A stretch of DNA of 64,000 bases from Truepera sp. (GTDB lineage: Bacteria > Deinococcota > Deinococci > Deinococcales > Trueperaceae), in contig CBDCKW010000009.1 of NCBI GenBank assembly GCA_965218435.1, positions 1,728,001 to 1,792,000 on the forward strand. The letters run 5' to 3'. The position numbers and the translations under genes are program-made. The notes beneath the pieces were generated by a model that searched no databases, was not told the DNA's origin, and saw only the letters and a list, made by a program, of their open reading frames with translations. Shown in pieces: positions 6,870-59,316 of this stretch (positions are counted from its first letter, which is position 1; each line of letters begins with the position of its first letter).

Positions 6870-6981
6870 GACGCCTCCTTGGGGTACTGAAATATACTTC
6901 AGGATTACAGTTGAGCTTTTAGGAGCCTATCAGATACGCTAGAGATATGCAACGCTTGACCAACTTTGGAGCCGCCCACGA

Positions 6982-7279
6982 TCAGCTTTTGTAGCTCTGA
7001 TTGATTGCGTAGAGAGAAAGCCTTACAGCTGCGCAAATGAGTATGACCGAGAGCTGAGAATTGCTCCACAGAATTCGAGTCGGATTGTCCAGTGGATTTT
7101 CTAGGTCTACAAGGTAAGGAAACGGCGGGCTGTCCGGCATACCGATACAGGCTGCTCGAGTCCTGCACAATAAAGTAAACCAGAAGCCTAAGTTTAACCT
7201 GTCCAAGCTCCGCCCGGTCATCAACTTGGGTCGGAACAGCCAAAGAACCCAGCACGAGCCAAACAGCCACGAAAAGCAT
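6982..7279 (-). pseudogene. Probable frameshifted small membrane protein
   Basis: Hydrophobic N-terminus MLFVAVWLVLGSLAVP...VYFIVQDSS in one frame appears to continue as PPFPYLVDLENPLDNPTRILWSN plus a TM segment in another frame. Confidence 0.35.
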
Positions 7280-36366: not shown

Positions 36367-36633
36367 ATAGGACTCCTCAGGTCATTCTAAAGGCAAGAAA
36401 AAGGTTTTTAGGGCACGTATGACGTACACCGTGACGGGTGCCTTGCAAAACGTACCGGCATACGCCCATAACTCCCTCAGCCTACCGGAAAGTCGTCGGG
36501 CTATGCGTTTCTCACCTTGCGTTCTCTCGGCTGTGTTGACCCTAAGCCTCACCGGTTAAGTCTTGCTGTGTGCTGATTTCGCCCGGCTCACCGTAGACCT
36601 GTTTACCGCAAACGCCCCGGCTGACCCGCCCCA

Positions 36634-36828
36634 CTAGGTACTGCGTTCGGCCTTCAGCCGCTCGGCAGCTTCTTGACTCCGCCCGGCTTTAACCAGCTCA
36701 CTGAGTTCGGTCGCGGTACGAAAATCTATCGTTTTTTGCTCGAGCGCCGCTCCGATGGCGTCCAGCGCGTCACGCTGAGCCGCAGTAAATCTAGGGCCGC
36801 GTAACGTTTGAGTGGGGTGCTGCGCCAT
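36634..36828 (-). CDS. Small hypothetical protein
   Basis: Helical 64-aa ORF with TATACT 6 nt upstream of ATG (leaderless type). Confidence 0.55.
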   Translation of the reverse strand: MAQHPTQTLRGPRFTAAQRDALDAIGAALEQKTIDFRTATELSELVKAGRSQEAAERLKAERST

Positions 36829-36914
36829 AAGAAAAGTATAAACGCCCCCTTACCGAGCGGACAACCTCCTTATTATGGGTTAGACGCGCCTTAGCTCGAG
36901 CAAGCACCTGCAGC

Positions 36915-37142
36915 TTAGCTGTTTGGTTGCCCCTCACCGTCTGCATTGTTGGTGATGGCGTTCCACACGACGCCGCTCTTGCCCCTGGCTTCACCTTCGG
37001 TGTCTGCTTTAACCATCCGGACAACGACCTTTTCAGAGGCGTAGCTGTCCCGGGCCGCGCAGCCCTGCTTATGATCGTCAAAACGGCTTAAGAGTTTCCA
37101 CGCAGTTGTACCGCTGGGTTTTTGAAAGATAAAGTAGGGCAT
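36915..37142 (-). CDS. Small hypothetical protein
   Basis: MPYFIFQKPSG... ORF with protein-like composition; no motif recognised. Confidence 0.4.
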   Translation of the reverse strand: MPYFIFQKPSGTTAWKLLSRFDDHKQGCAARDSYASEKVVVRMVKADTEGEARGKSGVVWNAITNNADGEGQPNS

Positions 37143-37243
37143 CCCCGACCTTAGCACCTAACGGGCGCTCCTGACGCTTGGAGCAACGCTACAAAACGGC
37201 GCAGACTGCTGTTTAGAGGTCTTTCTCGAGCAAAAATGCAGCT

Positions 37244-37510
37244 ATGGACAGAGCTAATGATCTCGGACCGGCAACTCTCGGCACCTTAAACGGCACCGGT
37301 TTTATGAACCGTCATCCCACCCAAGCTAGTGGTTACGTTCAGGGCGAGGGCGTTTTTATCGTCGCTGAAACGACCCGCGAGGCGGTCGAGGCGCTGATGG
37401 GCGAAGAGCTCGACTATGTAGGGCCGACCGAAGACGGCAACACCCGGGTCGCGCAGTGCCATATCGTCTCCGCCGAGGACTTTCCTACTCTCACATTTTC
37501 AAAAAGCTAA
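37244..37510 (+). CDS. Hypothetical protein
   Basis: 88-aa ORF with genome-typical codon use. Confidence 0.55.
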   Translation: MDRANDLGPATLGTLNGTGFMNRHPTQASGYVQGEGVFIVAETTREAVEALMGEELDYVGPTEDGNTRVAQCHIVSAEDFPTLTFSKS

Positions 37511-37583
37511 CCAAGACCCACCGTGTAAATCCGCCGCCGGGCTGTTACGGCGAACTGCTCGGCGGCCACAGGCTGAGGCCATT

Positions 37584-37895
37584 CTAGTGCTGCTTTTTAG
37601 CCCAGGTAAGAAACCGCTGCACCTCGGGTTCGGCTAACAGTGCCGCCCGCGTGTTGAGCCTCTTGCCAAGCTCGTTTTCGCTGTAGCTGCGGTGCAGCTG
37701 CCGGTGACACAAGCGGCAGAGCATCAGCCCACAGCCGCTGAGCTCGGCGCGACTAAAGCGCCGCGTGTACCAACCTCGGCGGTGAACACGTTTGGGAATA
37801 AGGTGGTGAAAAGTCAGCGGCTCTTCGCGTCCGCACAGTTCGCAGTAGCGGCAGCTGGCGCGGCGCGGCCCGAAATCAGTAGTTGGCGACGTCAC
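37584..37895 (-). CDS. Small HNH-type Zn-binding protein
   Basis: CELCGR...TFHHLIPK...LCRLCHRQLH; TAAACT 6 nt upstream of GTG. Confidence 0.8.
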   Translation of the reverse strand: MTSPTTDFGPRRASCRYCELCGREEPLTFHHLIPKRVHRRGWYTRRFSRAELSGCGLMLCRLCHRQLHRSYSENELGKRLNTRAALLAEPEVQRFLTWAKKQH

Positions 37896-38048
37896 CCCAT
37901 CAGTTTACAAAAACCGAAAGCGCGAGGTATTGCTCTAGCTGTCAACCGTTTAGACCAACCGTTTGGCCTCAAGACCTTGTTAGAAAAGACTTTAGAAAAT
38001 CAGACAAAGCGGCTTGCTGAGGTTTTGGCAGTGCTTGAGCTTTGTCCC

Positions 38049-38101
38049 TTGAACGAACATTCCTCAACGATTATACTTTAGCCTAACCCACCCCAGGTGG
38101 G
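38049..38101 (+). promoter_or_regulatory. Sigma70-type promoter with downstream C/G-tract inverted repeat (CsoR/RcnR-like operator candidate)
   Basis: TTGAAC(38049)-17 nt-TATACT(38072); CCCACC-CCA-GGTGGG at 38087-38101. Confidence 0.55.
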
Positions 38102-38122
38102 GAGAGTAAAGGGAGACAACCT

Positions 38123-38728
38123 ATGAAGCCAGTTGCCGCAACGTATTTGCTACTCAGCACTTTTTTATTCGGTGCTTTTGGCTTAGCACAACCTGCGCCG
38201 CCAACAGGACCACCCAACCAGCACCCACAGGGCGCGATGAATATGAGCAAAGCGCCAATTGGCAGTGAGCTGGACTTCATTCAGGGGATGATCCCGCATC
38301 ATCAGGAGGCCGTAGACAGCGCCCTGGTGATCGAAAAACACAGTGAGCACGCCCAACTTCGCGCCTTTGCCGGAGCTGTCGTTGGGGTTCAGCAGCGTCA
38401 GATCAGCGAAATGCGGGGATGGCTCCGGGCTTGGTATCCGAAACAAGCAAAAGCGGCGTCACCTTACCTACCGATGATGCGCACTCTGCCGAACGCCACG
38501 CCGGACGAAGCCGACCGCGCCTTTATCGAAGACATGATGACGCATCACGAGATGGCGATAGCGATGGCTCGAGAGTTTCTAGCCGGGGACTTCAAAAAGC
38601 ATCCCAAAGCCGAGGCGCTCGCAAGAGACATTATGTCTACCCAAGCCGCCGAAGTCGGTACCTTACGCGGCTGGTTGCGACGTTGGTACGGCGTCAAAGT
38701 AGACGCCACTACAAACACACACGGCTAG
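38123..38728 (+). CDS. Secreted DUF305 (CopM-like ferritin-fold metal-binding) protein
   Basis: Signal peptide; two repeats FIQGMIPHHQEAV..Q..EM.GWL.AW and FIEDMMTHHEMAIAMA..Q..E..WL..W. Confidence 0.88.
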   Translation: MKPVAATYLLLSTFLFGAFGLAQPAPPTGPPNQHPQGAMNMSKAPIGSELDFIQGMIPHHQEAVDSALVIEKHSEHAQLRAFAGAVVGVQQRQISEMRGWLRAWYPKQAKAASPYLPMMRTLPNATPDEADRAFIEDMMTHHEMAIAMAREFLAGDFKKHPKAEALARDIMSTQAAEVGTLRGWLRRWYGVKVDATTNTHG

Positions 38729-38883
38729 GCACACTAGAGATAGGTTTTGATAGGTCTTGCAAGGGGCAGGGCTCGAGCCAACTGGGGGTTTATGAACGGG
38801 CAAGTCAGACCACCGGTAAAGGTGTTCTTAACAGTGTTGTTCACGCTATTCTTCACACTGGTTTTCACACTAAGGGAAAAAGC

Positions 38884-39201
38884 ATGACCGTTAACAGCTA
38901 CGCCGTGGTAGGGCTGCTCGCCCTTATCGCCGCCGGGCTCGCGCTCCTCGGCGCAGCTTTCTGGAGACCTAAAGCCAAACTCTTAAAAGCGCCCGCAGCG
39001 TGGGCACAGTTTCGCTTCGGTTACGTCGTCTACGCGCTGATCTTTCTCTCATTCGACATGGAGATGATCTACATGTACCCGTGGGCGGTGGTGTTCGTGG
39101 AACGGGGCCTCGAGGCATTTTTAGACATGCTCGTCTTTATCGCCATTCTTTCTGCGGGCATCGCTTACGCCTGGGGGATGGGGGGGCTCGAGTGGGAGTA
39201 G
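38884..39201 (+). CDS. nuoA: NADH-quinone oxidoreductase subunit A-like (short TM1-2 loop)
   Basis: YALIFLSFDMEMIYMYPWA...YAWGMGGLEWE; start at ATG 38884. Confidence 0.88.
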   Translation: MTVNSYAVVGLLALIAAGLALLGAAFWRPKAKLLKAPAAWAQFRFGYVVYALIFLSFDMEMIYMYPWAVVFVERGLEAFLDMLVFIAILSAGIAYAWGMGGLEWE

Positions 39202-40091
39202 TCACGGGTGCTCTTTTTGTCCTCGCAACGCTGCTCGTCGGGGGCTTGGGAACGATGGGGCTCGAGCACCTTATGCGCCGCCGCGCCGAGTTAGGTCCGG
39301 CTACGACGCCGAGTATTCGGGAAGATGTCAAACTCCTTCAGGCTGACCGCTGGCTCTATCCGGCGGGGACGGTTTCAGCTTTGCTGGGCATCTTTTTTGC
39401 GCTAGTCGTGATTCCTTTCGGCCCCGGTCTTATCGCTCAGGACATCGGTATCGGGGCGTTTTACTTTATCGTCGTGCTGGACTTTGTGGTACTCGGGGTC
39501 GCGCTCACGGGTTGGGGCACAAATATACCGGACGCCGTAGACGCCTACTACCGCATCACCGCGCAGCTCGTCGCCTACGTCGTCCCACTGGGTCTCGCTT
39601 ATGTCGGGGCCATCATGATGGCTGAGTCTCTGTCTATTGTCACCATCGTTGAGCGGCAGAACAGCTTGTGGTTTGTCTTCCTGCAACCCATCGGTTTCTT
39701 GCTCTACCTCGTAACCGGATTGATGCAGGCTTACCGTGCGCCCTTTATGGAACCGTTTTCTAAGTTCATCGGAGGTGGCGTGCTCGGCGCTGTCGGTGGC
39801 TGGCAGGCGCTCGTATGGCGTTTTGCGCTCGCCGGTCTGCTCTTTGCCATTGCCGCGATGGGGGCTGTACTTTACTTGGGCGGCCCGCAGGGGCCGTGGC
39901 TACCCGCGCCGGTTTGGATGCTCGTTAAAACGTTTGGGCTGATGGCCTTGATGCTCGGCCTGGGGCGACTCGTCAAACCTTTAAGCACCGCGCAGATGCT
40001 CCAACTCTCGTGGCGCATCCTGATTCCTATTGGTCTGGTCAATGTGTTGGTCGTCGGCGGGCTGATTCTTTTAGGCGTAGGTCCCACATGA
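39192..40091 (+). CDS. nuoH: Divergent NADH-quinone oxidoreductase subunit H-like
   Basis: IPFGPG..DIG.G..Y, GWG.N, R..AQLVAY..P, SLS...IV..Q, QPIGF, RAPF, LYLGG and QMLQLSWRILIP; GTG start overlapping the nuoA end. Confidence 0.82.
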   Translation: MGVVTGALFVLATLLVGGLGTMGLEHLMRRRAELGPATTPSIREDVKLLQADRWLYPAGTVSALLGIFFALVVIPFGPGLIAQDIGIGAFYFIVVLDFVVLGVALTGWGTNIPDAVDAYYRITAQLVAYVVPLGLAYVGAIMMAESLSIVTIVERQNSLWFVFLQPIGFLLYLVTGLMQAYRAPFMEPFSKFIGGGVLGAVGGWQALVWRFALAGLLFAIAAMGAVLYLGGPQGPWLPAPVWMLVKTFGLMALMLGLGRLVKPLSTAQMLQLSWRILIPIGLVNVLVVGGLILLGVGPT

Positions 40092-40960
40092 TTCTAGGCG
40101 CGACCGCACAGGTGTTCGCCTTTGCTCTCTTGTCACTGATCGCCATTTTGGGGGCGCTCGGCATGGCGACGACGATGAGCATGTTTCGGAGCGGTATCTT
40201 CCTGATGGCGTCGTTTATCGGCGTGTCGGGGCTCTTTATCCTCCTCTCCGCCGACCTTTTGGGACTGTTACAAATCATGATGTATATCGGCGGGATGCTG
40301 GTGATGGTGCTTTTTATGGTGCTCTTAATGCATGACCCCGGCGGCAGCATGATGGCGGGGATGGACATGGCCCCGGTTGAAAACTTCTTTAGCCGAGGAC
40401 TGCTCCCCAAAGACGAAGGAGAGGTTGAGGCGGCTCGAGTCGATAACTTAGGTCAAAATGCTGAAGACGAAAGTGACGAGCAGCAAGGTTATCAGCATAG
40501 AAATCATCAGCATGAAGGTCATGACATATCAGCTGACGGGCACGGTAATGGGGATAGTCAGCAAGAGCACGAACATAGCGATATGAACCACGACGACATG
40601 GACATGGGCGATATGGACATGTCTATGGTGACGCCCGTCCGTTCTTACGCGGCGTGGCTCGGGCTCGGTACGGGCGCACTGCTCGTTTTACTCCTCTTGT
40701 TGCGCCCCGCTTGGCCGGTCGCGGACGCACTCCCTGATCCTGACTCGGCGCAGCAGGTCGGCAACCTTTTGATGAGCAAATACATGATGGCGTTCGAGGG
40801 CGCGGGCTTGCTTATCTTGGTCGGTATCTTCGGCGCGGTCTACATCGCACGGCCTGACCGTCATCCGTCGGCGAAGGGACGTGAGGTGCATGTCGGGCAA
40901 GACGAAATGCCTAGTGAACTCGAGGATGACACCTTGAAACCGCTGAGGGACAACGCATGA
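40088..40960 (+). CDS. nuoJ: NADH-quinone oxidoreductase subunit J-like with His/Met-rich insertion
   Basis: LSADLLGLLQIMMYIGGMLVMVLFMV and VGNLLMSKYMMAFEGAGLLIL; about 100-aa insert after TM3. Confidence 0.85.
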   Translation: MILGATAQVFAFALLSLIAILGALGMATTMSMFRSGIFLMASFIGVSGLFILLSADLLGLLQIMMYIGGMLVMVLFMVLLMHDPGGSMMAGMDMAPVENFFSRGLLPKDEGEVEAARVDNLGQNAEDESDEQQGYQHRNHQHEGHDISADGHGNGDSQQEHEHSDMNHDDMDMGDMDMSMVTPVRSYAAWLGLGTGALLVLLLLLRPAWPVADALPDPDSAQQVGNLLMSKYMMAFEGAGLLILVGIFGAVYIARPDRHPSAKGREVHVGQDEMPSELEDDTLKPLRDNA

Positions 40961-41268
40961 TTCTCCCCTTGACAGCTTTTTTAAGCGTTGCTGCCATCCT
41001 CTTCGGCATCGGTGTCTACACCGTCATCGCGCAGCGTTCAGCCGTGATGATTCTGATGGGCGTCGAGGTCCTCTTAAACGCCGTCGGCCTTAACATCGTG
41101 GCCTTCTGGCGTTTTGTCGCCCCTTCAGACTACTCCGGACAGATTTTTCTGATCATCATCGTGACGTTAGGTGCGGTCGAGATGGGCATTGGGCTCGCCA
41201 TTATGATGATGCTCTACCGCAACCGGCAGACCGCACAGGTTGACGATTTTACGGAATTAAAAGGGTGA
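40957..41268 (+). CDS. nuoK: NADH-quinone oxidoreductase subunit K
   Basis: LFGIG, LMGVEVLLNAV, GQIF and AVEMGIGLA. Confidence 0.92.
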   Translation: MILPLTAFLSVAAILFGIGVYTVIAQRSAVMILMGVEVLLNAVGLNIVAFWRFVAPSDYSGQIFLIIIVTLGAVEMGIGLAIMMMLYRNRQTAQVDDFTELKG

Positions 41269-43190
41269 CGGCGCTCCTGATCGCTGTGCCGCTTATGCCC
41301 TTATTAGCTGCACTTGTGATTCCTCTAGGGCAACGTCTGCCAAGCGGCTGGGTGAGCGCGGGCGCGACGGGCGTTTCATTGGCACTTTTACTCGCCCTGT
41401 TCGGGTCGCACCTCAGCATGACGGCGACATGGTTAGGGGTCGGCACTTACACCCTCACAGTTGGGCTCAGCCTGGACCCGCTTTCATATCTGCTGGCGCT
41501 CTTAGTCGCAGGCGTTGGTTTCCTCGTGGGGGTGTACGCAGTCGGGTATATGGCCGATGAACAAGGCAAGCCGCGTTTTTACAGCACCTTGTCATTTTTT
41601 ATCGGAGCGATGCTGACCCTCGTCCTCAGCAATTCGCTGGTGCTGCTGTTCGCCGCTTGGGAGAGTGTCGGGCTGGCGTCGTATCTGCTGATTGGCTTCT
41701 GGTATACCCAAACTGACGCGAAAGAAGCGGCGCGTAAAGCCTTCCTGATGACCCGCTTAGGCGATCTTGGCTTGCTGCTCGGCTGGTTACTCCTGCTCCT
41801 AACGGTTGGCACAACGGATATTCAGACCGTTTTAGGTGCGGTGGGAACAGGTTTGCCTGCAGGCATTGCCACACTCGCGGCTTTTCTCTTGCTTTTGGGA
41901 GCACTCGGTAAGAGCGCACAGCTTCCACTTACAGCTTGGCTCCCTGACGCGATGGCTGGGCCGACACCCGTGTCGGCGCTGATCCACTCGGCCACGATGG
42001 TCGCGGCGGGTGTGTATCTGCTGCTGCGCTTATTCCCACTCTACGAAGCGGCTCCGGGCATCCTCACCGTTGTGCTCTGGTTGGGCGCGCTTACGGCACT
42101 TTTTGCGGCGCTCGTCGCTACGGTGCAAACCGACCTTAAGCGCGTTTTGGCGTGGTCTACGGTGTCACAGCTCGGTGAGATGTTTTTTGCAATCGGTTTG
42201 GGCAGCGCATTTGCCGCAGCCTTTCATTTGGCAATGCACGCACTGTTTAAGTCGGTACTGTTTCTCACGGCGGGTGCGGTCGAGCATATCGTCGGCGGTT
42301 ACGACCTGCGGAAGATGGGCGGGTTGTGGCGACAGCTGCCCCTCACAGCTGGGGTGTTTGCCGCAGCGGGCTTGACGCTGGCGGGGTTTCCGCCTTTTTC
42401 TGCGTTTTGGAGTGAAGAGGCGATTTTGGCTCGAGCCGCGTCTGTTAGCCCATTTGCTGGGGCATTTTTCTTGCTGCTTATCTTTCTTGCCGGGGTGTAT
42501 ATCAGTCGGGCGGGAGTCGCAGCGTTTCTAAGTTGGCCGGGTGCGCCGAAACCAACCGAGAAAAAACCGAGCGTGTGGCTGGCTCTACCGATGCTTGTTC
42601 TGGCTGTGCTTACACTCGGCGCGGGCTGGGTATCGAAGGGGCCGCTCGAGTCCTTCCTCCCCTTTCCTCAACCGCCGGAAGCTCACACGACCTGGACGCT
42701 CTGGGCTGTCGCCGCAAGTGTTTTAGGGCTCGTCTTTGGAAGTTGGCGAACGTTGCAACATGGCCTCGTACCGACTTTTGGCAGGTTTCCGGTGGGGTTG
42801 GGGCACGGCCTCAACGTTCTGACCTCTACGCCCGTGACGATAGTGCATACGGTTTCGGCAGGTGTAAACGGGCTCGAGCACACCCTTGATGCTTTCGTCA
42901 GACAGCTTGCAAGCGGCACTCTTATGCTAACGGGCAGCCTAAACCGTGCTGAGAGTAGCTTTGATAGGGGGGCTCGAGGTTTCGCGTCTATAACTCTAAG
43001 AACTGCTACCGGAACCGAGAAAGCTGAACAAAGGGGATTCTCAAGAGGTGGCGACGCTTTCGCACGCCTCTTCAGCCGTTCCGGGCAGCGGCTACGCACC
43101 ACTGAGAGCGGCAAACTTTATCTTTATACGCTTGTCCTGTTCGTCTGGGTCGCAGGGGTCGTCGTCGGAGGCGTGCTGCTGTGGTGGTAA
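41265..43190 (+). CDS. nuoL: NADH-quinone oxidoreductase subunit L-like antiporter subunit
   Basis: WESVGLASYLLIGF, KAFLMTRLGD, GKSAQLPL..WLPDAMAGPTPVSALIHSATMV and HALFK; terminal TM16. Confidence 0.92.
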   Translation: MTALLIAVPLMPLLAALVIPLGQRLPSGWVSAGATGVSLALLLALFGSHLSMTATWLGVGTYTLTVGLSLDPLSYLLALLVAGVGFLVGVYAVGYMADEQGKPRFYSTLSFFIGAMLTLVLSNSLVLLFAAWESVGLASYLLIGFWYTQTDAKEAARKAFLMTRLGDLGLLLGWLLLLLTVGTTDIQTVLGAVGTGLPAGIATLAAFLLLLGALGKSAQLPLTAWLPDAMAGPTPVSALIHSATMVAAGVYLLLRLFPLYEAAPGILTVVLWLGALTALFAALVATVQTDLKRVLAWSTVSQLGEMFFAIGLGSAFAAAFHLAMHALFKSVLFLTAGAVEHIVGGYDLRKMGGLWRQLPLTAGVFAAAGLTLAGFPPFSAFWSEEAILARAASVSPFAGAFFLLLIFLAGVYISRAGVAAFLSWPGAPKPTEKKPSVWLALPMLVLAVLTLGAGWVSKGPLESFLPFPQPPEAHTTWTLWAVAASVLGLVFGSWRTLQHGLVPTFGRFPVGLGHGLNVLTSTPVTIVHTVSAGVNGLEHTLDAFVRQLASGTLMLTGSLNRAESSFDRGARGFASITLRTATGTEKAEQRGFSRGGDAFARLFSRSGQRLRTTESGKLYLYTLVLFVWVAGVVVGGVLLWW

Positions 43191-43221
43191 CGAAATCTAA
43201 AACGCTCATTGCGGGGGCATC

Positions 43222-44691
43222 ATGCTGAGTATCACCATTTTTTTACCGCTCCTGACGGGGCTCGTCGTCCTAGCCTTACCCAATGTCCGGGCAATACGCT
43301 GGACGGCCCTCGCCGGGTCGCTGCTGACGCTCCTTTTCACGCTTATTTTGTGGGCGGGCTATAACCCAACCGGTTCACAGCTTCAGTGGCACGCGGCGGC
43401 TCCGTGGATTCCAAGTATTGGGGCGAGTTACGACTTGGCGGTTACCGGTCTTTCGCTCCCACTTATGGTTCTCACCGCGCTGCTGCTCAGCCTGACGATG
43501 GTTTATGTGTTGCCCGAGCACGACCGGGCGAAAGCGCACGCGTTTTTGTTCCTGCTGATGGGCACAGGGTTACTCGGTCTGTTCGGGGCTCGAGACCTGC
43601 TCCTCTTCTACCTTTTTTTCGAGGTTGCCCTCGTCCCGATGTACTTTATCGTCGGCATCTGGGGGGGCGAGAACCGGCGGTACGCCGCGCTCAAGTTCTT
43701 TCTCTATACCCGCGTCGGCAGCCTCGCCATGCTGCTGAGCTTTTTGGCACTCTATCTGGCAAGCGGCCGCAGCTTTTCACTCGCTGAGATCAGCACAGCG
43801 CAACCCTTTGCGGGTTCAGGGACCGGATTTTGGGTCTTTTTGGGCTTACTGCTCGGTTTCGGCGTAAAACTGCCGACGGTGCCGCTCCACAACTGGCTCC
43901 CCGATGCCCACGTCGAAGCGCCGACCGAGGGCAGCGTGATGCTCGCCGGAATTCAGCTCAAGATGGGCGCGTACGGCTTTTTAGCCATTATGCTGCCAAC
44001 CTTGCCCGACACGGTGCGGCAATACGCCTGGCTCCTGATGCTCTTGGCGCTGGTGTCGCTCGTTTACGGCGCGCTAGCGGCGCTCGCGCAGAGCGACCTC
44101 AAACGGCTGATCGCCTACACCTCGGTCAATCACATGGGTTTTGTGCTTCTAGGGGTGGCGGTGTGGGGGCTCTCGAGTGACCCCGGCGTCCGGCAGCTCG
44201 CCCTGAGCGGCGCGGTGTTGCAGACCATCAGCCACGGGCTTTTGACGGGCGGGATGTTCTTTCTGGCAGGGATTTTGCAGCATCAGGCAGGCACACGGGA
44301 GCTGGCGCGTTTTGGCGGACTACTGGGAAAGGTGCCGGGATACAGCGGTCTTTTGGGCCTCTTGGCGTTTGGTTCGTTGGGATTACCGGGGCTTTCGGGT
44401 TTCGTCGCCGAGTTTCAGGTCATCGGCGCAACCTTGTCGGTCAATATCTGGTTCGCGCTGGTCGCGGTTTTGGGGCTGATCATCTCGACGGCGCTCTACC
44501 TCAAGGTGTTGACTGCTCTGCTGATGGGCACGCCGCCTGACGATATGCCCACGGTGCGTGAGCTGAATCCGCGTGAGGCGACCGCTGTGATTCCGCTGGC
44601 TGTTCTGTCGCTGACGATTGGGTTGCTACCGGGACCATTTTTACGCGTGTTGGGGACAACTGTTCGCGCTCTAGCTCGGCTCGGAAGCTAG
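43222..44691 (+). CDS. nuoM: NADH-quinone oxidoreductase subunit M
   Basis: FFEVALVPMY, KFFLYT, VKLPTVPLHNWLPDAHVEAP, LKMGAYG, SHGL and GLPGLSGFVAEF. Confidence 0.93.
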   Translation: MLSITIFLPLLTGLVVLALPNVRAIRWTALAGSLLTLLFTLILWAGYNPTGSQLQWHAAAPWIPSIGASYDLAVTGLSLPLMVLTALLLSLTMVYVLPEHDRAKAHAFLFLLMGTGLLGLFGARDLLLFYLFFEVALVPMYFIVGIWGGENRRYAALKFFLYTRVGSLAMLLSFLALYLASGRSFSLAEISTAQPFAGSGTGFWVFLGLLLGFGVKLPTVPLHNWLPDAHVEAPTEGSVMLAGIQLKMGAYGFLAIMLPTLPDTVRQYAWLLMLLALVSLVYGALAALAQSDLKRLIAYTSVNHMGFVLLGVAVWGLSSDPGVRQLALSGAVLQTISHGLLTGGMFFLAGILQHQAGTRELARFGGLLGKVPGYSGLLGLLAFGSLGLPGLSGFVAEFQVIGATLSVNIWFALVAVLGLIISTALYLKVLTALLMGTPPDDMPTVRELNPREATAVIPLAVLSLTIGLLPGPFLRVLGTTVRALARLGS

Positions 44692-44695
44692 CGAG

Positions 44696-46135
44696 ATGGA
44701 GTGCATGGACCTCTGGGCCATCGTCCCAGAGCTGATCTTAGCTGGTTTCGCGCTGCTACTCGTCCCGGTTGCCGGTCTGAGCAAAGGACGCGGGCAAAAC
44801 GTCGTGGTGTTTTTAGCGGTGTGCGGGCTTATCGCGGCGACTGTGTTTAGCGTACGGATGCTCCTCTGGAGAGACCAAGCCGTCTTTTGCGGGACCTACG
44901 CCGTAGACGGTTTCGGTACGGTGTTTAAGCTTCTGATTTTGTTCGGGGCACTCCTGTCACTTTTGGCTATCGGCGCACATTTCCGGGGGACGGGCAAAGA
45001 AGGACACGCCGCCGTCGCCTTGCTCTTTTCGACCCTGGGCGGGGTGTTGGCGGCCTCGAGCCTTGACTTAGGTCTCATCGTGCTCTTTTTACAGCTGCTC
45101 AGCATGGCCTCGTACATCTTAGTGGCGCTGGTACGAACCAATAGGGAGGCAAACGAGGCGGCGCTCAAATACTTTATCTACGGGGCGGTGGCGCTGGCGG
45201 TGATGGCTTACGGGCTTTCGTTTTTGTACGGCCTCACTGGAAGCCTCTCACTACCGGCAATTGGAGGAAGCTTGCGCAGTGCCGATGGCGTCTGGGTGGC
45301 GCTCGCCTTTGGTTTTGTCTTGATCGGCTACGCCTTTGAGATTACGGCGGTGCCCTTTCACTTCTGGGCACCCGACGTATACACCGGCGCTTCTGCGCCC
45401 GTCACCGGGTTTTTGTCGGTTGTACCTAAACTGGCGGGCTTTGCGGCGCTCTTGCGGTTTCTCCTCGTCGCGCTCCCCGGCGGTATGGCGGCGTGGCCGC
45501 TCGCGGTGGCGATTTTGGCCGCTCTCACCATGACGCTCGGCAATCTAGTTGCCTTGCGGCAAACACGGCTCAAACGGCTGTTGGCTTACTCGAGCATCGC
45601 CCAAGCGGGGTATGTGCTGATGGCCGCGGCCGTTTCTGAGCGCGTACCCTCAGCTCTGGGCGCCGCTGGCTACTACCTGCTCGCGTACTCCCTGATGAAT
45701 CTCGGAGCGTTCGTGGTGGCGGCGCAGCTCGAGCGCCTCACCGGGAGCGACGAATTACGGGGCTTGCGGGGTCTGGGCCAACGCTCGCCGCTGGCGGCTG
45801 TGGGCCTCACCTTGTCCCTTTTATCCCTGGCGGGTATTCCGCCGCTCGCAGGGTTTGCCGGGAAGGTACTCCTCTTAGACGTCACCCTCTCCGGTGGTCT
45901 AACCTGGCTGGCCGTCGTCGGTGTATTGAACTTCGCTGTGGCGCTCTACTACTACCTCTTGCCGATTGTTGAGATGTACCTGCGTGCGCCGGAAACCACA
46001 GACCGTGTTCCTAATTGGCCGGGGTATCTCGTGGCGCTCGGCGTCAGCGTTTTCGGCACGCTTTTGATCGGTATCTTGCCAAGCACCGTACTCAGCGTGA
46101 CGCAGCACCTCTCGAGGGTTTTTAACAAAGGCTAA
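44696..46135 (+). CDS. nuoN: NADH-quinone oxidoreductase subunit N
   Basis: EAALKYF, VPFHFWAPDVYTGA, PKLAG, KRLLAYSSIAQAGY and GIPPLAGFAGK. Confidence 0.93.
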   Translation: MECMDLWAIVPELILAGFALLLVPVAGLSKGRGQNVVVFLAVCGLIAATVFSVRMLLWRDQAVFCGTYAVDGFGTVFKLLILFGALLSLLAIGAHFRGTGKEGHAAVALLFSTLGGVLAASSLDLGLIVLFLQLLSMASYILVALVRTNREANEAALKYFIYGAVALAVMAYGLSFLYGLTGSLSLPAIGGSLRSADGVWVALAFGFVLIGYAFEITAVPFHFWAPDVYTGASAPVTGFLSVVPKLAGFAALLRFLLVALPGGMAAWPLAVAILAALTMTLGNLVALRQTRLKRLLAYSSIAQAGYVLMAAAVSERVPSALGAAGYYLLAYSLMNLGAFVVAAQLERLTGSDELRGLRGLGQRSPLAAVGLTLSLLSLAGIPPLAGFAGKVLLLDVTLSGGLTWLAVVGVLNFAVALYYYLLPIVEMYLRAPETTDRVPNWPGYLVALGVSVFGTLLIGILPSTVLSVTQHLSRVFNKG

Positions 46136-46261
46136 GACACCTCGCTTCAAAGTGCTAGACGGCCGTGACAAAGGAGTGTTTTTAGAAAGGTTTCCGGCAC
46201 TTGGGTGCTACTTTACTTTTATCCCTTACGTTTTGCGGCGACTACCCGGTGCGGGGTTCTG

Positions 46262-46293
46262 GTTCTTACCGTGCCAAGTTCTTACCGTGCCAA
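46262..46293. repeat. Perfect 16-bp tandem duplication
   Basis: GTTCTTACCGTGCCAA x2. Confidence 0.9.
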
Positions 46294-46456
46294 GTAGAGC
46301 AGACCCCGTAAACTAAGGGATGACCCCCGCCGCGCCGATCGCCGAATGGGAGCAAGTGACTACTGAGAATGTCGCCACTCAAAGCCACTTTTCAAGCTTC
46401 TATTGTCGTTTGACTAAATCAAAAGCTTGTATCTATCTGGCTTGTAAGGGTGCCTT

Positions 46457-49400
46457 GTGACCTTTGACGAGTACCAAGCCAGCCTCGAGGCCGACTTTAA
46501 GCGAGGCAACGCTACCGAACACACCTATAGGGGCACCTTAAAAGCGTTGCTCGAGTCTAAGTTTCCGGGCATCGTCGCCACGAACGAACCCAAACGCATT
46601 TCTGCAGGCGCACCCGATTACGTCATCTCTCGAGGCGAAACCCCGCTGGGTTACATCGAAGCTAAAGACTTAGGCCGTTTAGACAACCCGACCGACCGGG
46701 AAAAAGAGCAGCTGGGGCGCTACCTCGGCAGTTTAGGCAACCTCATCTATACGGACTACTTAGAGTTTCGCTGGTTTGTCGAAGGACAGCACCGCTTGAC
46801 CGCACGGCTGGCAAGTATCAACGGCAAAGGGTTACGGGTAGAGCCTGACGGCGCACAAAACCTCGAGATGCTACTCAAGGGCTTTTTAGGCGTCACAGCC
46901 CCAACGATTAAGAGCCCGTCAGCCCTAGCCCGCAAGATGGCCGCGTTAGCCCAACAGATACGGCACACCATCTTAGGGGCGTTTAACGCCGAAGACTTAA
47001 CAGACGACCATCCCGACCCGCTGCACGACCAGTACCAGGCGTTCCGGGAAGTCTTACTCTCTGATTTGACCCCCACACAGTTTGCCGACATGTACGCCCA
47101 GACCATCACCTACGGGATGTTTGCTGCCCGCACGAGTCCGAACTTTACGCCGCCCTTTACCCGGTACAAAGCAGCGTATGACATCCCGAAGACCAATCCC
47201 TTTTTACGCACCGTGTTTCGGCAGATGGTCGGGCCGGAACTCGAGTCCAGTGTGGACTGGATTGTAGACGATTTAGTCAACCTCTTAGCGCACGCTGATA
47301 TTGGCGCTATCTTGCAAGACTTTGGCACCCGGACTCGTACTGAAGACCCGGTAGTCCATTTTTACGAAACGTTCCTAGCCGCGTATGACCCCAAGATGCG
47401 CGAGGCGAGAGGCGTCTACTACACCCCTGAGCCGGTGGTCTCTTACATCGTCAGAAGTGTTGACCATATCCTTAAAAAAGACTTTGGGCTTAGAGACGGG
47501 TTAGCCGACACCTCAAAAGTAAGAGTGATAGACCCTGAACAGCGCAGCCAAAAAGACCGTAAGACCAAAGACGTGCACAAGGTGCAAATCCTCGACCCGG
47601 CGACCGGCACGGCGACGTTTTTACATGCGGTCATAGACCAAATCCACAGCACCATTGTCGGACAGACCGGCGGGAACAAGGGGCTGTGGTCGGGGTACGT
47701 GAAGAATCACCTGTTGCCCCGGTTACACGGGTTTGAGTTATTGATGGCTCCCTATACCGTGGCGCATATGAAGCTGGGGTTGCAGCTCGCTGAACTCGGT
47801 TATGACTTCGACTCTAACGAACGGCTCAAGATTTACCTGACGAACGCTTTAGAAGAGGCGCACCAGTTTCCGAGTTTGCCGCTGTTTGGGCAGGCCATCG
47901 CCAGAGAGAGCCAAGAGGCGGGGCAGGTCAAGCAAGATGCGCCGGTGATGGTGGTGCTAGGGAACCCGCCGTATTCCTATGCGTCTTCAAACAACGGTGA
48001 ATGGATTAGCAAAATCATCAGAGACTACTACACTGTAGACGGGCAACCGCTAGGTGAACGCAACCCTAGAGGCTTGCAAGACGACTATGTAAAGTTCCTT
48101 CGCTTTTCTCAATGGCGCATTGAGCAGACGGGCTACGGCGTTCTGGGGTTTGTTACTGCTCACGGCTATCTGGACAACCCGACCTTTAGAGGGATGCGTC
48201 AAAGCTTGATGAATACCTTCGATGACCTTTATGTGCTTGACCTTCACGGCAATAGCAATAAGAAGGAGCGCACCCCGGACGGCGGCAAAGACGAAAATGT
48301 GTTCGACATCATGCAAGGTGTGTCCATCGGCATCTTTATCAAAAAGCCGAGCAGCTTAGAGAAGCGGGTATACAAGGCTGACCTTTACGGCTCGAGGGCA
48401 GACAAGTACAAAACCTTGTGGGAAAGCGACATTTCAAAAACTGAGTGGAAAGAGGTAAATCCGCAAACACCTTTTTACCTTTTCGCTTCCCAACAAGAAG
48501 ACATCTGGGACGAATACAAAGTATGGAACAAAATCACTGAGATAATGCTTACCCACTCAGTTGGCATCTTGACCTCAAGAGATGAACTAACAATTAAGTT
48601 CAGCCAAGAAGAGGTACTTCGCACAGTGAAAGATTTTATTAAGCTCTCCGAGGAAGATGTTCGACGCACATTCAATCTTCCAGAAGACAGTAGGGACTGG
48701 AAAATCTCTTATGCTCAAGAAGATTTGAGAAATAGCAAGATAAGTGATGCGAACGTGCTGCCCATATCCTATCGGCCATTTGATACGAAATATACCTACT
48801 TCACGGGAAAGTCTAGAGGCTTTCATAGCACTCCAAGAACGAATGTGATGAAACACATGCGGCGTGATAACCTTGCGCTGCTAACGAGCAGATTGACTAA
48901 GGGTGAGAAATTTGCTCATGCCTTGGCTACAAAGCATTTATCTGAGAAGATTTTACTTTCTGCTAAAACCTCAAATAATAGCTTTCATTTTCCACTCTAC
49001 CTCTACCCAGACACCTCTAACCTCTTTGACATCGGCGTGCGCCGCCCCAACCTCGCACCGGAGTTCACCGCAGAGTTTGCCGAGAAGGTGGGGCTCGAGT
49101 TTATAGGAGACGGCCAAGGCGACCTGACAAGTACCTTTGGCCCTGAAGACGTGTTTCACTACATCTACGCGGTGTTTCACGCGCCCAGCTACCGGGAACG
49201 CTACGCCGAATTTCTTAAGATTGACTTTCCACGGGTGCCGCTCACGAGTAGCTTGGGGCTATTCCGCACGCTCACTGCTTACGGTGAAACACTGGTAGCA
49301 CTGCACCTCATGGAACGAGTCGGCAGTCCGATCAGCAGCTACCCGGTAGACGGGGACAACATCGTAGACAAGGTGAGCTTTTCTGAGAACGAAGACGGTA

Positions 49401-49645
49401 AGACGGGGCGCGTCTACCTCAACCAGACGCAATACTTTGATGGGGTGCCGGTAAAGGTTTGGAACTTTTACGTGGGTGGGTATCAGGTGTGTCAAAAGTG
49501 GCTTAAAGACCGCAAGGGGCGCACGCTTTCGTATGACGACCTGCGGCACTACGGCTTTATCGTTTCGGCACTGTTTGAAACCATCGGCGTGATGGGTGAG
49601 GTTGATACGGCGATAGAAGGGGCTGGAGGGTGGCCTTTAGCTTAG
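46457..49645 (+). CDS. Single-chain restriction-modification enzyme (nuclease + N6-adenine methyltransferase + LlaBIII-like C-terminal specificity domain; Type IIG/ISP-like, no helicase)
   Basis: PD..IEAK nuclease motif; HFYETFL, GVYYTP, LDPATGT (motif I), GNPPY (motif IV), YRPFD and FPRVP. Confidence 0.88.
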   Translation: MTFDEYQASLEADFKRGNATEHTYRGTLKALLESKFPGIVATNEPKRISAGAPDYVISRGETPLGYIEAKDLGRLDNPTDREKEQLGRYLGSLGNLIYTDYLEFRWFVEGQHRLTARLASINGKGLRVEPDGAQNLEMLLKGFLGVTAPTIKSPSALARKMAALAQQIRHTILGAFNAEDLTDDHPDPLHDQYQAFREVLLSDLTPTQFADMYAQTITYGMFAARTSPNFTPPFTRYKAAYDIPKTNPFLRTVFRQMVGPELESSVDWIVDDLVNLLAHADIGAILQDFGTRTRTEDPVVHFYETFLAAYDPKMREARGVYYTPEPVVSYIVRSVDHILKKDFGLRDGLADTSKVRVIDPEQRSQKDRKTKDVHKVQILDPATGTATFLHAVIDQIHSTIVGQTGGNKGLWSGYVKNHLLPRLHGFELLMAPYTVAHMKLGLQLAELGYDFDSNERLKIYLTNALEEAHQFPSLPLFGQAIARESQEAGQVKQDAPVMVVLGNPPYSYASSNNGEWISKIIRDYYTVDGQPLGERNPRGLQDDYVKFLRFSQWRIEQTGYGVLGFVTAHGYLDNPTFRGMRQSLMNTFDDLYVLDLHGNSNKKERTPDGGKDENVFDIMQGVSIGIFIKKPSSLEKRVYKADLYGSRADKYKTLWESDISKTEWKEVNPQTPFYLFASQQEDIWDEYKVWNKITEIMLTHSVGILTSRDELTIKFSQEEVLRTVKDFIKLSEEDVRRTFNLPEDSRDWKISYAQEDLRNSKISDANVLPISYRPFDTKYTYFTGKSRGFHSTPRTNVMKHMRRDNLALLTSRLTKGEKFAHALATKHLSEKILLSAKTSNNSFHFPLYLYPDTSNLFDIGVRRPNLAPEFTAEFAEKVGLEFIGDGQGDLTSTFGPEDVFHYIYAVFHAPSYRERYAEFLKIDFPRVPLTSSLGLFRTLTAYGETLVALHLMERVGSPISSYPVDGDNIVDKVSFSENEDGKTGRVYLNQTQYFDGVPVKVWNFYVGGYQVCQKWLKDRKGRTLSYDDLRHYGFIVSALFETIGVMGEVDTAIEGAGGWPLA

Positions 49646-49785
49646 CGTCCGCAAGTAAGGCTCGAGGCGGCTGCCTACCAGCTGCACGTCTGCTCTTTGG
49701 GGCGTTACCGGCTTATGCTTGATAAAATCTGGTAAAGAATTTTAGGACGTCCTCGAGATAGTTTTGCAGCACCTGCCAAAGCAAC

Positions 49786-49813
49786 AGCCCCGCTGAGCGC
49801 GGGCTTCTTTTTT
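49786..49813. terminator. Intrinsic terminator between the R-M gene and the tRNA
   Basis: AGCCCCGC-TGA-GCGCGGGCT followed by TCTTTTTT. Confidence 0.6.
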
Positions 49814-55136: not shown

Positions 55137-56209
55137 ACCGGCGCTTTTCACGCTATCTCATCAGTGAGATTTTGCCGCTCTACGCCGCCGGTCTCACCGC
55201 GCTCTTGATCTTGCTCCTCGGTAGCTTTCTGATTTTGGGCGTGTTGGCGCAGGCGATCTCTCGAGGTGTCGGGCCGGGGCTCGTCGCCGAGTTCTTGCTC
55301 TACAGCATCCCTACAGCCGCGGCGATGGGTCTGCCGTTGGCGCTCCTGTTTGCGGCGCTCTTAGGGATTACCCGGCTCAGTCAGGACAGCGAGATCAAAG
55401 CGGCGCTCCTGTTAGGCGTCTCACCACGGCAATTTTTAGGGCCGATGCTCGTCTTAGGATTGGCCGTCGCCGCGCTCAGTTTTATCAACAACGAGCTCAT
55501 CGCCCCCTGGAGTTACGACCGGGCGCAGGAGGCGTTATCGGACATCTTGGTGCAGAGCCCCGAAGTCATCGTCGAAGAAGGCAACTTTTTTACCGACGCG
55601 CTCGGGCGCAGCGTCTACGTCGGCGGTCTTGGGAAGGGCGGCGTCGTCCGTGACGTGACGGTGATTCAACCGGGCGGCTCGCAGGGGGTGAGCGAAGTCA
55701 TCCGCGCCGAGCGCGGCGTCCTCGACCAAGAGGCGGGCGTGTGGCGTCTACAAAATATCCGACTTTTACGCTACCGCGACGGTCAGGTTGTGCTGGACGC
55801 ACCCGCCAAAAGCGCCGAGGTGCCGTTTCGGGGACTGTCGGCGAGTTCCGGTGCGCCTCCCGAACTCGTCCGGCTCCGCCTCGGTGACCTGCTCAGTCGG
55901 CTGCGCGGCACCACCCCGCAAGATGCGCCCGCCGAATGGACGGCGCTGCAGCGCAAATTCGCTGAACCCGCCGCGGCAGTGGCGTTTGCCATGTTCGCGC
56001 TCGCCATTGGGCTCTACAGTTTCCGGCGCAACTTCGGGCTCGGGCTCGTCTCAGTGCTGTTTTTGACCTTCATCTACTACGCGACCTGGAGCGTGTCGAA
56101 CCTGTTGGGTGCGCAAGGGGCAATTCCGGCAGTCGTCGCGGGGTGGGCGCCGGTCGCGCTCTATCTGGTGGCGGGCCTCGTCTTGTTCGGATTGTCGTGG
56201 CGGCGCTGA
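55133..56209 (+). CDS. LptF/LptG family permease
   Basis: RFSRYLISE, RLSQDSEIKAALLLGVSP, KFAEP and AGWAP; GTGA overlap. Confidence 0.9.
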   Translation: MNRRFSRYLISEILPLYAAGLTALLILLLGSFLILGVLAQAISRGVGPGLVAEFLLYSIPTAAAMGLPLALLFAALLGITRLSQDSEIKAALLLGVSPRQFLGPMLVLGLAVAALSFINNELIAPWSYDRAQEALSDILVQSPEVIVEEGNFFTDALGRSVYVGGLGKGGVVRDVTVIQPGGSQGVSEVIRAERGVLDQEAGVWRLQNIRLLRYRDGQVVLDAPAKSAEVPFRGLSASSGAPPELVRLRLGDLLSRLRGTTPQDAPAEWTALQRKFAEPAAAVAFAMFALAIGLYSFRRNFGLGLVSVLFLTFIYYATWSVSNLLGAQGAIPAVVAGWAPVALYLVAGLVLFGLSWRR

Positions 56210-59200: not shown

Positions 59201-59316
59201 TCAATACCAAAAACGGAGCCATCAGCTTGACGCTCGGTTATCCCGGCAGCAGTCAGGGACTGACCGGAGGCTTTAGAATCCCTACCCTCGCCTTACCCGA
59301 ACGGAGATACAGATGA
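56209..59316 (+). CDS. LptD-like outer-membrane beta-barrel assembly protein
   Basis: Signal peptide, N-terminal jellyroll-like region with FSPCSRC..DYRFSAER, long beta-rich C-terminus with DRCCW; follows lptF/G. Confidence 0.7.
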   Translation: MRRTTLLTLLLLCLGVSHAVEVEILDADKLEVRPITLPGGTQTELTIITGSPVRLKVDGDTIVAEYVEFDKSSRIMRIVGPGNVAYDNITTKGKDYILDLSNGDLNFRDVFIFTEPIDIEGVAATRQPGQIDISAAQFSPCSRCQSEVQDYRFSAERMNFYPGDRLVAFNVTVYLRDLPSFFLPLMVVPLGPQDRRPRFNLTRGSADERAEVALDWPYVFGANAFGTTSLRYYADVTPNSSTSPTETILGGTVTQNYFGGGFDHRFYTERGRGRARFFYTPSFLPRTDYDVKTPEAFEYTLGYKTEAALSGLQTDLLLERDDLTNPQIINLTARLGNTYEGFNFGYVTQTYFDLNLDPNDTSYSPSYDDAEGALRTYAQVQVSPEEDLSFSVGPLTLTNLLVTAGVYEDYANPSNNSATQASGLTIGGRSIIRGGRLLERHTVTLAPLTPFPGSSVSGSTNYTGQFYTTTNPGGENERLVDWTTTLSAEQTFDGGSFGLNFSRVILEGESPFAFDARTTPNNRTELTSTFSLTPLPWVDLSASETYVFRDDRSYGGFGTVGASELGAGPLETRAELFNNLDWLNVTLEQAYDLQNNDPGLLGATIELVSPNPVLTSRVQLSGVYDLEQRTRLTGAKVNESEVNLETQVGYTPYAALTVDLGYDFNGVSFDNFGGDYGNFDNGSTYSGSYSDGYTGNGSLEPGSEAVGVPLYKPLVFSLTAGTESQEDTVPSLTLSFDRDLNRDRMNSASYLATAKLGPLELTAEQNFDFDAYDASDTTFTVTYPGVAQLSASGFTPLPPQLIGLDLKPEDSTTYEVSLLDQTQEDDTKLYKVTYTTTYGPLYDVGDKQYQGFSDTSVTAQTNLETTFFETPLGALGFGIDANAILELSSDDQPLTYLSSAAAKFTVDFFSRVGLQGTLSYAALASGLDITSQTLSFNEFGPTVRILDDLYLSVIFDDQNGDVWNFTNPGQQRYDTPYNFQPLIYLTLDRCCWAFYGAINTKNGAISLTLGYPGSSQGLTGGFRIPTLALPERRYR

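Follow-up and report, generated by a model that had tools for sequence, protein, structure and literature searches.

We analysed a stretch of 64,000 nucleotides from the genome of Truepera sp. (assembly GCA_965218435.1, contig CBDCKW010000009.1, positions 1,728,001 to 1,792,000 of the forward strand), which is called the window here. It carries a compact cluster of genes related to the membrane arm of complex I, headed by a DUF305 gene. Eight co-oriented genes, from DUF305 through nuoN, lie at window positions 38123-46135 on the + strand. The DUF305/CopM gene (38123-38728) was identified by Pfam (PF03713, 6.8e-35) and NCBIfam (NF049983, CopM). Four genes recognized by both Pfam and NCBIfam follow: nuoA-like A2 (38884-39201, 105 amino acids), nuoH-like H2 (39192-40091, 299 amino acids), nuoJ-like J2 (40088-40960, 290 amino acids), and nuoK-like K2 (40957-41268, 103 amino acids). 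The cluster ends with nuoL-like L2 (41265-43190, 641 amino acids, TIGR01974), nuoM-like M2 (43222-44691, 489 amino acids, TIGR01972), and nuoN-like N2 (44696-46135, 479 amino acids, TIGR01770), which were assigned with NCBIfam. The start of A2 was set at the ATG at 38884, while the list of open reading frames (ORFs) had it at 38419. All seven membrane subunits of complex I (A, H, J, K, L, M, and N) are present in their relative order, and genes overlap by 4 nucleotides at the H/J (ATGA), J/K, and K/L junctions. A Pfam scan of the cluster and its surroundings matched no ORF to NuoB, C, D, E, F, G, or I.

An earlier note on this DNA, made from the letters alone, had described seven tightly coupled membrane-arm genes without hydrophilic subunits, and the Pfam and NCBIfam identifications bear this out. 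It had also placed the start of nuoH within the end of nuoA. H2 indeed begins at a GTG that overlaps the A2 stop by 10 nucleotides, and its N-terminus agrees with those of homologues. Finally, the note saw no obvious terminator after the DUF305 gene. In our scan, too, the + strand had no terminator-like site in the DUF305-nuoA interval, and a promoter-like site stands before DUF305.

Relation to complex I and Mrp antiporters

The genome (4.8 Mb, 9 contigs) encodes a complete 14-gene nuoA-N operon at C9:3390275-3405002, 1.6 Mb from the cluster. One NuoB and one NuoD were found genome-wide, both inside this canonical operon, and there are two NuoH in total. The genome has eight PF00361 genes, of which three are canonical, three are in the cluster, and two form an Mrp-like pair at C9:244-248 kb. 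The two open frames of this pair (C9:244270-248307, - strand; 772 and 517 amino acids) resemble MrpA and MrpD, and thus the genome also has a conventional Mrp-type antiporter. Since a full second nuo operon exists in the same genome, the possibility that the cluster is part of a simply split operon was rejected. The cluster proteins are distant from their canonical paralogues, with identities of 29% over 68 amino acids (A2), 25% (H2), 27% over 74 amino acids (J2), 38% (K2), 48% (L2), 36% (M2), and 40% (N2).

The earlier note had suggested looking for a separate complete nuo operon and had proposed that the set matches neither complex I nor Mrp, and is a module decoupled from NADH and quinone. 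Besides the canonical operon just described, the evidence for decoupling is that no second NuoB or NuoD exists and that quinone-site loops and acidic residues are lost in H2 and A2 (see below). Like the membrane arm of complex I, the cluster has the seven subunits in order, with L, M, and N passing the NuoL/M/N subfamily models. It differs from complex I in that neither the Q-module (NuoB, NuoD, C, and I with the membrane arm) nor the N-module is encoded in the cluster, and none is spare in the genome. Mrp (Mnh/Pha) is also a redox-free, membrane-only relative of complex I with antiporter-like and NuoK-like subunits, and cation exchange driven by the proton-motive force is presumed for both. 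Mrp is not known to have a NuoH or NuoA homologue and has MrpB, E, F, and G. In the cluster, by contrast, NuoH- and NuoA-like genes are present and there are no further small membrane genes. L2, M2, and N2 scored best on the NuoL/M/N models of NCBIfam and fell under every Mrp cut-off, and the Mrp-like PF00361 pair of this genome is encoded elsewhere.

Other members of the superfamily (MBH, MBS, Ech, Fpo, cyanobacterial NDH-1, and the 11-subunit 'complex I-like' enzyme) are variants with altered electron-input modules. To our knowledge, all of these keep NuoB/NuoD homologues, which is a defining feature. The window set has neither, and a degenerate NuoD-like gene occurs only in a distant Chloroflexota branch of the family.

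Remodelling of the membrane subunits

A2, H2, and J2 scored far under the NuoA/H/J equivalog cut-offs of NCBIfam. A2 reached 58.7 bits against a cut-off of 145, and its Pfam match was limited to profile positions 33-99, the C-terminal two thirds, so that the match to the loop between transmembrane helices (TM) 1 and 2 was lost. H2 reached 118 bits against a cut-off of 399, and its Pfam score was 125 bits compared with 394 for the canonical paralogue. Compared with canonical NuoH, 14 residues of the TM1-2 loop and several further loop segments are deleted, and its best PDB match, E. coli NuoH, covered residues 77-321 only. In this alignment, H2 has Val at the position of an E-channel Glu and has lost most of the acidic residues of the TM5-6 loop. 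Loops of the quinone cavity and an E-channel glutamate are thus missing from H2. In contrast, L2 (444 bits, cut-off 407.5), M2 (500 bits, cut-off 264), and N2 (336 bits, cut-off 333) passed their models.

The canonical set of Glu (TM5), Lys (TM7), Lys/His (TM8), and Lys/Glu (TM12) is complete in M2 and altered in N2 and L2. M2 has E134, K216, K247, and E397, which are kept in 36 of 36 relatives, except that E397 is kept in 35 with one gap. In N2, Gln133 replaces the TM5 Glu (33/33 close relatives and 4/4 distant ones) and Glu215 replaces the TM7 Lys (33/33 close relatives), while the distant branch retains the Lys; K245 and K390 are kept. In L2, Glu384 replaces the TM12 Lys, a change seen in 35 of 40 family members but not in the canonical protein or the distant branch, both of which have Lys. 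L2 keeps E133, K216, H241, H321, H325, and K329, and its C-terminus, read by eye, has the long amphipathic stretch and final TM of complex I NuoL. The membrane glutamates E37 and E75 of K2, D58 and E60 in TM2 of A2, and Y66 of J2 are invariant in the family and shared with complex I. Overall, proton-path residues are invariant in M2, K2, and A2, and in most of L2 and N2.

The cluster proteins have also gained methionines. We counted a Met as family-specific when it was conserved at at least 90% and absent from the canonical paralogue. There are 5 such residues in A2, 6 in H2, 16 in J2, and 3 in K2, while L2 has none, M2 has 3, and N2 has 2. In other words, the 'heel' (A/H/J/K, 797 amino acids) has 30 conserved new Met, compared with 5 in L/M/N (1609 amino acids). 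Many of them flank channel carboxylates (D58-M59-E60-M61 in A2; M34/E37 and E75-M76 in K2), and two precede the invariant Tyr of J2 (M64-M65-Y66). The conserved Met include residues 59, 61, and 64 of A2, 34, 76, and 83 of K2, 64, 65, 73, and 77 of J2, and 142, 143, and 178 of H2. The remodelling falls exactly on the parts that serve quinone coupling.

The most conspicuous change is in the TM3-TM4 loop of J2, which contains an insert rich in His, Met, Asp, and Glu (residues 86-185; 40343-40642, + strand) flanked by conserved Met motifs. All close-family sequences in which the loop could be located have such an insert, 41-204 amino acids long, with repeats such as MDHG, MDHSQMQHG, and HEGHGH. 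In the distant Chloroflexota branch, the TM3-TM4 loop and the C-terminal tail of NuoJ contain 3-4 Pfam HMBD domains instead (E 3e-33 to 6.5e-61). Since two different kinds of metal-binding insert occur at the same site of NuoJ, metal binding there seems to be the point of the insert. J2 has five TM helices, so the TM3-TM4 loop and the C-tail are on the same side of the membrane, and its Lys and Arg are concentrated in loop 1-2, the edges of loop 3-4, and the C-tail. In complex I structures, the TM3-4 loop of ND6/NuoJ faces the peripheral arm. Together, these features place the insert at the docking site of the Q-module, on what is predicted to be the cytoplasmic face.

The Met and His motifs and the membrane-embedded Met are reminiscent of the methionine relay of CusA-type pumps, the Met motifs of Ctr1, and the His-Met-rich N-termini of CopB-type ATPases. 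The likeness would be one of working principle only. No sequence or fold relationship exists, and coupling in the cluster would run via complex I-type antiporter modules. These features suggest thioether-based handling of Cu(I)/Ag(I).

Distribution, mobility, and copper context

The earlier note had proposed searching genomes for A-H-J-K-L-M-N synteny without B/C/D/I. A scan of species-representative genomes found the set again at 58 further loci, which represent about 16 lineage groups (59 loci with the window; individual loci are given L numbers below). The order H-J-K-L-M-N was found in 51 of the 58 loci, and the other seven are cut off by the end of their contig. A2 was found in 55 of the 58, and B, C, E, F, G, and I in none. 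Hosts include Trueperaceae (87% identity), Deinococcus, Chloroflexia, Oxalobacteraceae, Cyanobacteria, Verrucomicrobiota, several Alphaproteobacteria, Desulfobacterota, Actinomycetota, Vulcanimicrobiota, Ignavibacteria/Bacteroidota, and Rhodanobacteraceae. Searching proteins with H2 likewise returned sequences of about 299 amino acids, 63-93% identical, from Deinococcus, Methylobacterium/Methylorubrum, Rhodopseudomonas, and others. Carriers that can be cultured include Deinococcus marmoris, D. saxicola, a Methylobacterium species, and Rhodopseudomonas sp. BAL398. The idea of selection rather than decay, also from the earlier note, was strengthened. Measured against L005, the closest relative, the ratio of non-synonymous to synonymous substitution rates (dN/dS) lies between 0.047 and 0.102 in all seven genes (dS 0.8-1.2), and homologues in other phyla are 60-75% identical. 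None of the three outcomes that the note had named as refuting it (a simply split operon, dN/dS near 1, or no recurrence of the gene set) was observed.

In four distant Chloroflexota loci, a diverged NuoD-like gene separates A from H. The related Chloroflexota branch (L055, L056, L058, L059, L060, and L062) has the order nuoA, diverged NuoD-like gene, nuoH, nuoJ-K-L-M-N. NuoH and NuoA have diverged less in this branch, which also retains the canonical Lys at TM7 of NuoN and TM12 of NuoL. In evolutionary terms, the branch looks intermediate between complex I and the redox-free arm.

The cluster is accessory and mobile. Of 364 genomes from the window's phylum, 10 carry it (9 among the 263 of high quality), as does one of five congeners, where it is at a different genome position and has no DUF305 gene. 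Three PLSDB plasmids and a plasmid of Deinococcus carry it as well. The copy on the conjugative plasmid pBAL398.3 is arranged as DUF305-nuoA-H-J-K-L-M-N, with a two-component system, a CusA/CzcA pump, DmeF, and two CsoR/RcnR-type repressors as neighbours. We consider it very likely that the cluster encodes a real, selected, redox-free, and mobile complex.

The earlier note had suspected a relation to copper and had suggested tabulating neighbours such as copA, csoR, multicopper oxidase, and DUF305 genes. Our metal panel consisted of P1B ATPase, CopZ, CsoR, DUF305, DUF326, multicopper oxidase, CopB, CopCD, CusF, DUF411, HMBD, RND, and MerR. Flanks were searched with Pfam for 30 cluster representatives and 300 of 529 dereplicated ORFs; the rest were covered by a tblastn panel, which was run over all loci. 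A copper- or metal-homeostasis family occurs in the flanks of 40 of the 59 loci, representing 12 of the 16 lineage groups. When this panel was applied to 20,000 random positions of the window's genome, 2.1% were positive. In the window, L007, L011, L012, L014, L015, L024, and pBAL398.3, DUF305 immediately precedes the cluster on the same strand, and in L016 and L051 CopZ-CsoR is directly upstream. Multicopper oxidases were found in five loci. In six Bacteroidota/Ignavibacteria loci (L046, L047, L048, L052, L054, and L061), the next gene after nuoN on its strand, at about +122 to +169, encodes a monohaem cytochrome c (Cytochrome_CBB3), and a cytochrome c gene is close upstream of the cluster in L050 and L022. 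In all-against-all clustering of 1029 crude ORFs from the 58 loci and the window, no partner gene was conserved across the family, and the largest non-nuo cluster covers 14 loci. Locus ORFs were called crudely as the longest ORF and some are spurious antisense frames, so family assignments rest on Pfam or tblastn.

The first gene of the window cluster points in the same direction. Its product scored above the cut-off of the CopM model NF049983 (96.1 bits, cut-off 90) and is classed as a CopM-family copper metallochaperone, for which copper binding is predicted. Read by eye, its N-terminus has a signal-peptide-like segment, as expected of a secreted protein. Upstream is a sigma-70-like promoter (TTGAAC-17-TATACT, 38049-38077, + strand), which is a consensus match only (1 site found, 0.3 expected in shuffles). 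A G-tract pseudopalindrome of 19 nucleotides (38086-38104), a putative CsoR operator, lies between the -10 element and the ribosome-binding site. CsoR operators have been described as G-tract pseudopalindromes (PMC3902906). The 4.8 Mb genome has only three sites within 3 mismatches of this 19-mer, the window's own included. The site at C9:3703567 is identical at 16 of 19 positions and lies in the divergent copA/csoR intergenic region, where it overlaps the spacer of the copA promoter. The third site (C9:1189524, - strand) has no metal-panel gene nearby. L005 has similar G-tract sites before copA and copZ-csoR, and the genes after them continue on a single strand as far as nuoA-N and a DUF326 gene. 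At the sequence level, an operator-like site is thus shared with the csoR/copA locus, and the copM-nuoAHJKLMN operon is probably controlled by the genome's single CsoR and induced by copper.

The operon resembles the copMRS and CsoR-copZA regulons in its leading CopM-family gene and its palindrome of the copA-csoR type, and OmpR/histidine kinase pairs stand beside the cluster in L005, L012, L014, L016, L022, and pBAL398.3. It differs from them in its nuo-like genes, which are part of no cop regulon described in the literature searched. The cluster is physically tied to copper genes, and probably also in regulation. Neighbourhoods, the CopM assignment, the His/Met or HMBD inserts of NuoJ, and the operator-like site shared with copA-csoR all support the suspected relation to copper, and a copper- or metal-related system is likely. 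We infer that the cluster is an accessory, horizontally transferred module of copper (soft-metal) homeostasis.

Several loci have other neighbours. The six loci with a cytochrome c gene after nuoN have a CusA-like RND pump, HMBD proteins, and a CcmF-like gene upstream. Genes for rhodanese, a metallo-beta-lactamase-rhodanese fusion, and YeeE-type sulfur transport adjoin some clusters (L005 9045-9479, L006 3641-5044, and L019 34-2334), which hints at a link to persulfide/sulfide stress besides copper. In L013, a Chloroflexia locus otherwise without metal genes, a gene of the MbnB/TglH/ChrH family, whose members modify ribosomally synthesized and post-translationally modified peptides, is directly downstream of nuoN (17672-18475). 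On the Deinococcus plasmid (L016), a bacteriorhodopsin-like gene (6561-7277) adjoins DUF305 and a two-component system 2.4 kb upstream of the cluster, and a Tn3 transposase is downstream.

In the window, the cluster is flanked by opposite-strand glycine-cleavage (gcv) genes and by a Type ISP restriction enzyme. The latter is directly downstream (46457-49645, + strand) and is a restriction-modification enzyme of 1062 amino acids (N6_Mtase and Type_ISP_C). The region comprising the cluster and this enzyme (about 36400-49800) has no counterpart beside the gcv genes in five congeners. Between gcvH and the DUF305 promoter, a small ORF (37584-37895, - strand) has a Cys/His pattern that looks HNH-like by eye, with no Pfam match at E 0.001. 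Two ORFs of 1057 and 423 amino acids with an overlapping junction follow lptF/lptG (56143-59316 and 59313-60584, + strand) and had no Pfam match at 1e-5.

Possible function of the cluster

The metal-binding features and the copper-resistance neighbours suggest that the complex probably uses the proton gradient for copper export and not for respiration. The reading as a whole, in which the cluster encodes a stand-alone, redox-free derivative of the complex I membrane arm, with an A/H/J/K heel, antiporter-like L, M, and N, and a CsoR-controlled role in copper export, has in our view about an even chance. For a proton-driven Cu(I) exporter in particular, we would put the chance at even or slightly below. 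In such an exporter, cytoplasmic Cu(I) would be captured by the His/Met-rich NuoJ loop, where the peripheral arm docks in complex I. The metal would then pass through the former E-channel of A/H/J/K, lined with conserved Met beside the retained carboxylates, and leave on the periplasmic side, to be handled there by the co-transcribed CopM-like protein and by other products of cop/cus genes. Proton influx through L/M/N would pay for transport, making the complex a Cu(I)/H+ antiporter. Expression would probably be repressed by the single CsoR and induced by copper. Mitochondria retaining only the P-module of complex I keep Na+/H+ exchange (bioRxiv 10.1101/2023.05.30.542932), and thus antiport by a P-module alone is plausible. 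The label 'ion/metal-responsive translocase', given by the earlier note, is compatible with a Cu(I) exporter.

Several observations weigh against the exporter. The metal panel was assembled after the loci had been seen, and its baseline comes from one genome. No metal gene was found in the flanks examined of 19 of the 59 loci; all three close Chloroflexia loci were negative, as were three of the four Actinomycetota loci. Some loci sit instead with rhodanese, YeeE, NhaA, or Na_H_Exchanger genes. Cytoplasmic Cu(I) sites usually use Cys, and the J2 loop of the close family has no Cys except for one each in L042, L049, and L057. The predicted cytoplasmic position of the J2 insert draws on homology to complex I structures together with the positive-inside rule. 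Among sequencing runs, three DNA runs from one study were listed as containing the stretch, and no RNA run was. Finally, canonical NuoD is present in five of five other hosts tested, as well as in the window's own genome, and a link of the cluster to complex I is therefore possible. No host without NuoD, which was sought to exclude such a link, was found among the five.

A generic Mrp-like Na+/K+/H+ antiporter or pH-homeostasis device, hitch-hiking in stress or metal islands and with a regulatory or incidental His/Met loop, is an unlikely explanation. It would fit the antiporter-like L, M, and N with most proton-path residues kept, the exchange activity of the mitochondrial P-module (bioRxiv 10.1101/2023.05.30.542932), the NhaA or Na_H_Exchanger genes near L039 and L045, and the loci without a metal neighbour. 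However, the genome already has an Mrp-like pair, the 30 new Met were gained specifically in the heel, and metal-binding inserts of two forms were acquired in the same NuoJ loop. CsoR/CopZ or CopM is directly upstream in 10 loci, and the operator-like site is common to the window and copA-csoR. Alternatively, a copper-responsive complex might not move copper at all, and might be a Cu-gated proton or cation conduit, sequester metal in its loop, or be the partner of a periplasmic redox protein. The cytochromes c and multicopper oxidases beside some clusters are candidate redox partners, and the low-complexity His/Met/acidic loops resemble metal 'sponges'. This too is improbable, since no neighbour is conserved across the family, conserved Met extend beyond the loop to the channel carboxylates within the membrane subunits, and the fixed charge swaps of N2 and L2 point to an altered ion path and not to mere regulation.

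The cluster might also provide an alternative, copper-tolerant membrane arm that docks the canonical NuoBCDEFGI to make a second form of complex I. The canonical NuoD of all hosts checked, the NuoL/M/N subfamily scores, and the NuoD-like gene of the distant Chloroflexota branch are in line with this. But H2 lacks a TM1-2 loop segment and acidic TM5-6 residues that line the quinone cavity and has Val at the E-channel Glu position, A2 lacks the TM1-2 loop match, and an insert of 41-204 amino acids stands at the docking face. As the cluster moves across phyla and on plasmids, such an arm would also have to fit unrelated peripheral arms, and we regard it as very unlikely. The missing hydrophilic subunits and the strong divergence of A, H, and J could even be read as the decay of a duplicated nuo operon into a functionless remnant. 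This was rejected and has virtually no chance of being right, because all seven frames are open, dN/dS is 0.05-0.10, 51 of 58 loci, spread over many phyla, retain the same seven genes, and family-specific residues are invariant.

Our full-text literature searches turned up neither a described nuoAHJKLMN-only cluster nor nuo genes within cop regulons. A 2025 survey (PMC12361115) records 'Nuo-partial' clusters, some of them partial sets on plasmids, without analysis, and its supplementary sheets may list such clusters. We tentatively propose, with somewhat less than an even chance of being correct, a new class of metal transporter. It would combine an E-channel turned into a Met/carboxylate path for Cu(I)/Ag(I), three proton modules, independence of ATP, a high H+/Cu ratio, control by CsoR or CopRS, and plasmid spread over at least ten phyla, with the Chloroflexota branch as a living intermediate.

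Genome pipelines label these genes as ordinary NADH-quinone oxidoreductase subunits, which inflates complex I counts and hides the system. If the complex works without a redox arm, it would be a natural 'P-module only' machine. With its natural charge swaps in NuoN and NuoL, it would offer a simple system for studying how the heel (NuoH/A/J/K) is coupled to the antiporter subunits, a long-standing open question about complex I. If the exporter reading is true, cytoplasmic copper export would have a third energy mode in addition to P-type ATPases and RND systems, and the family would be a mobile determinant to seek in copper-exposed environments.

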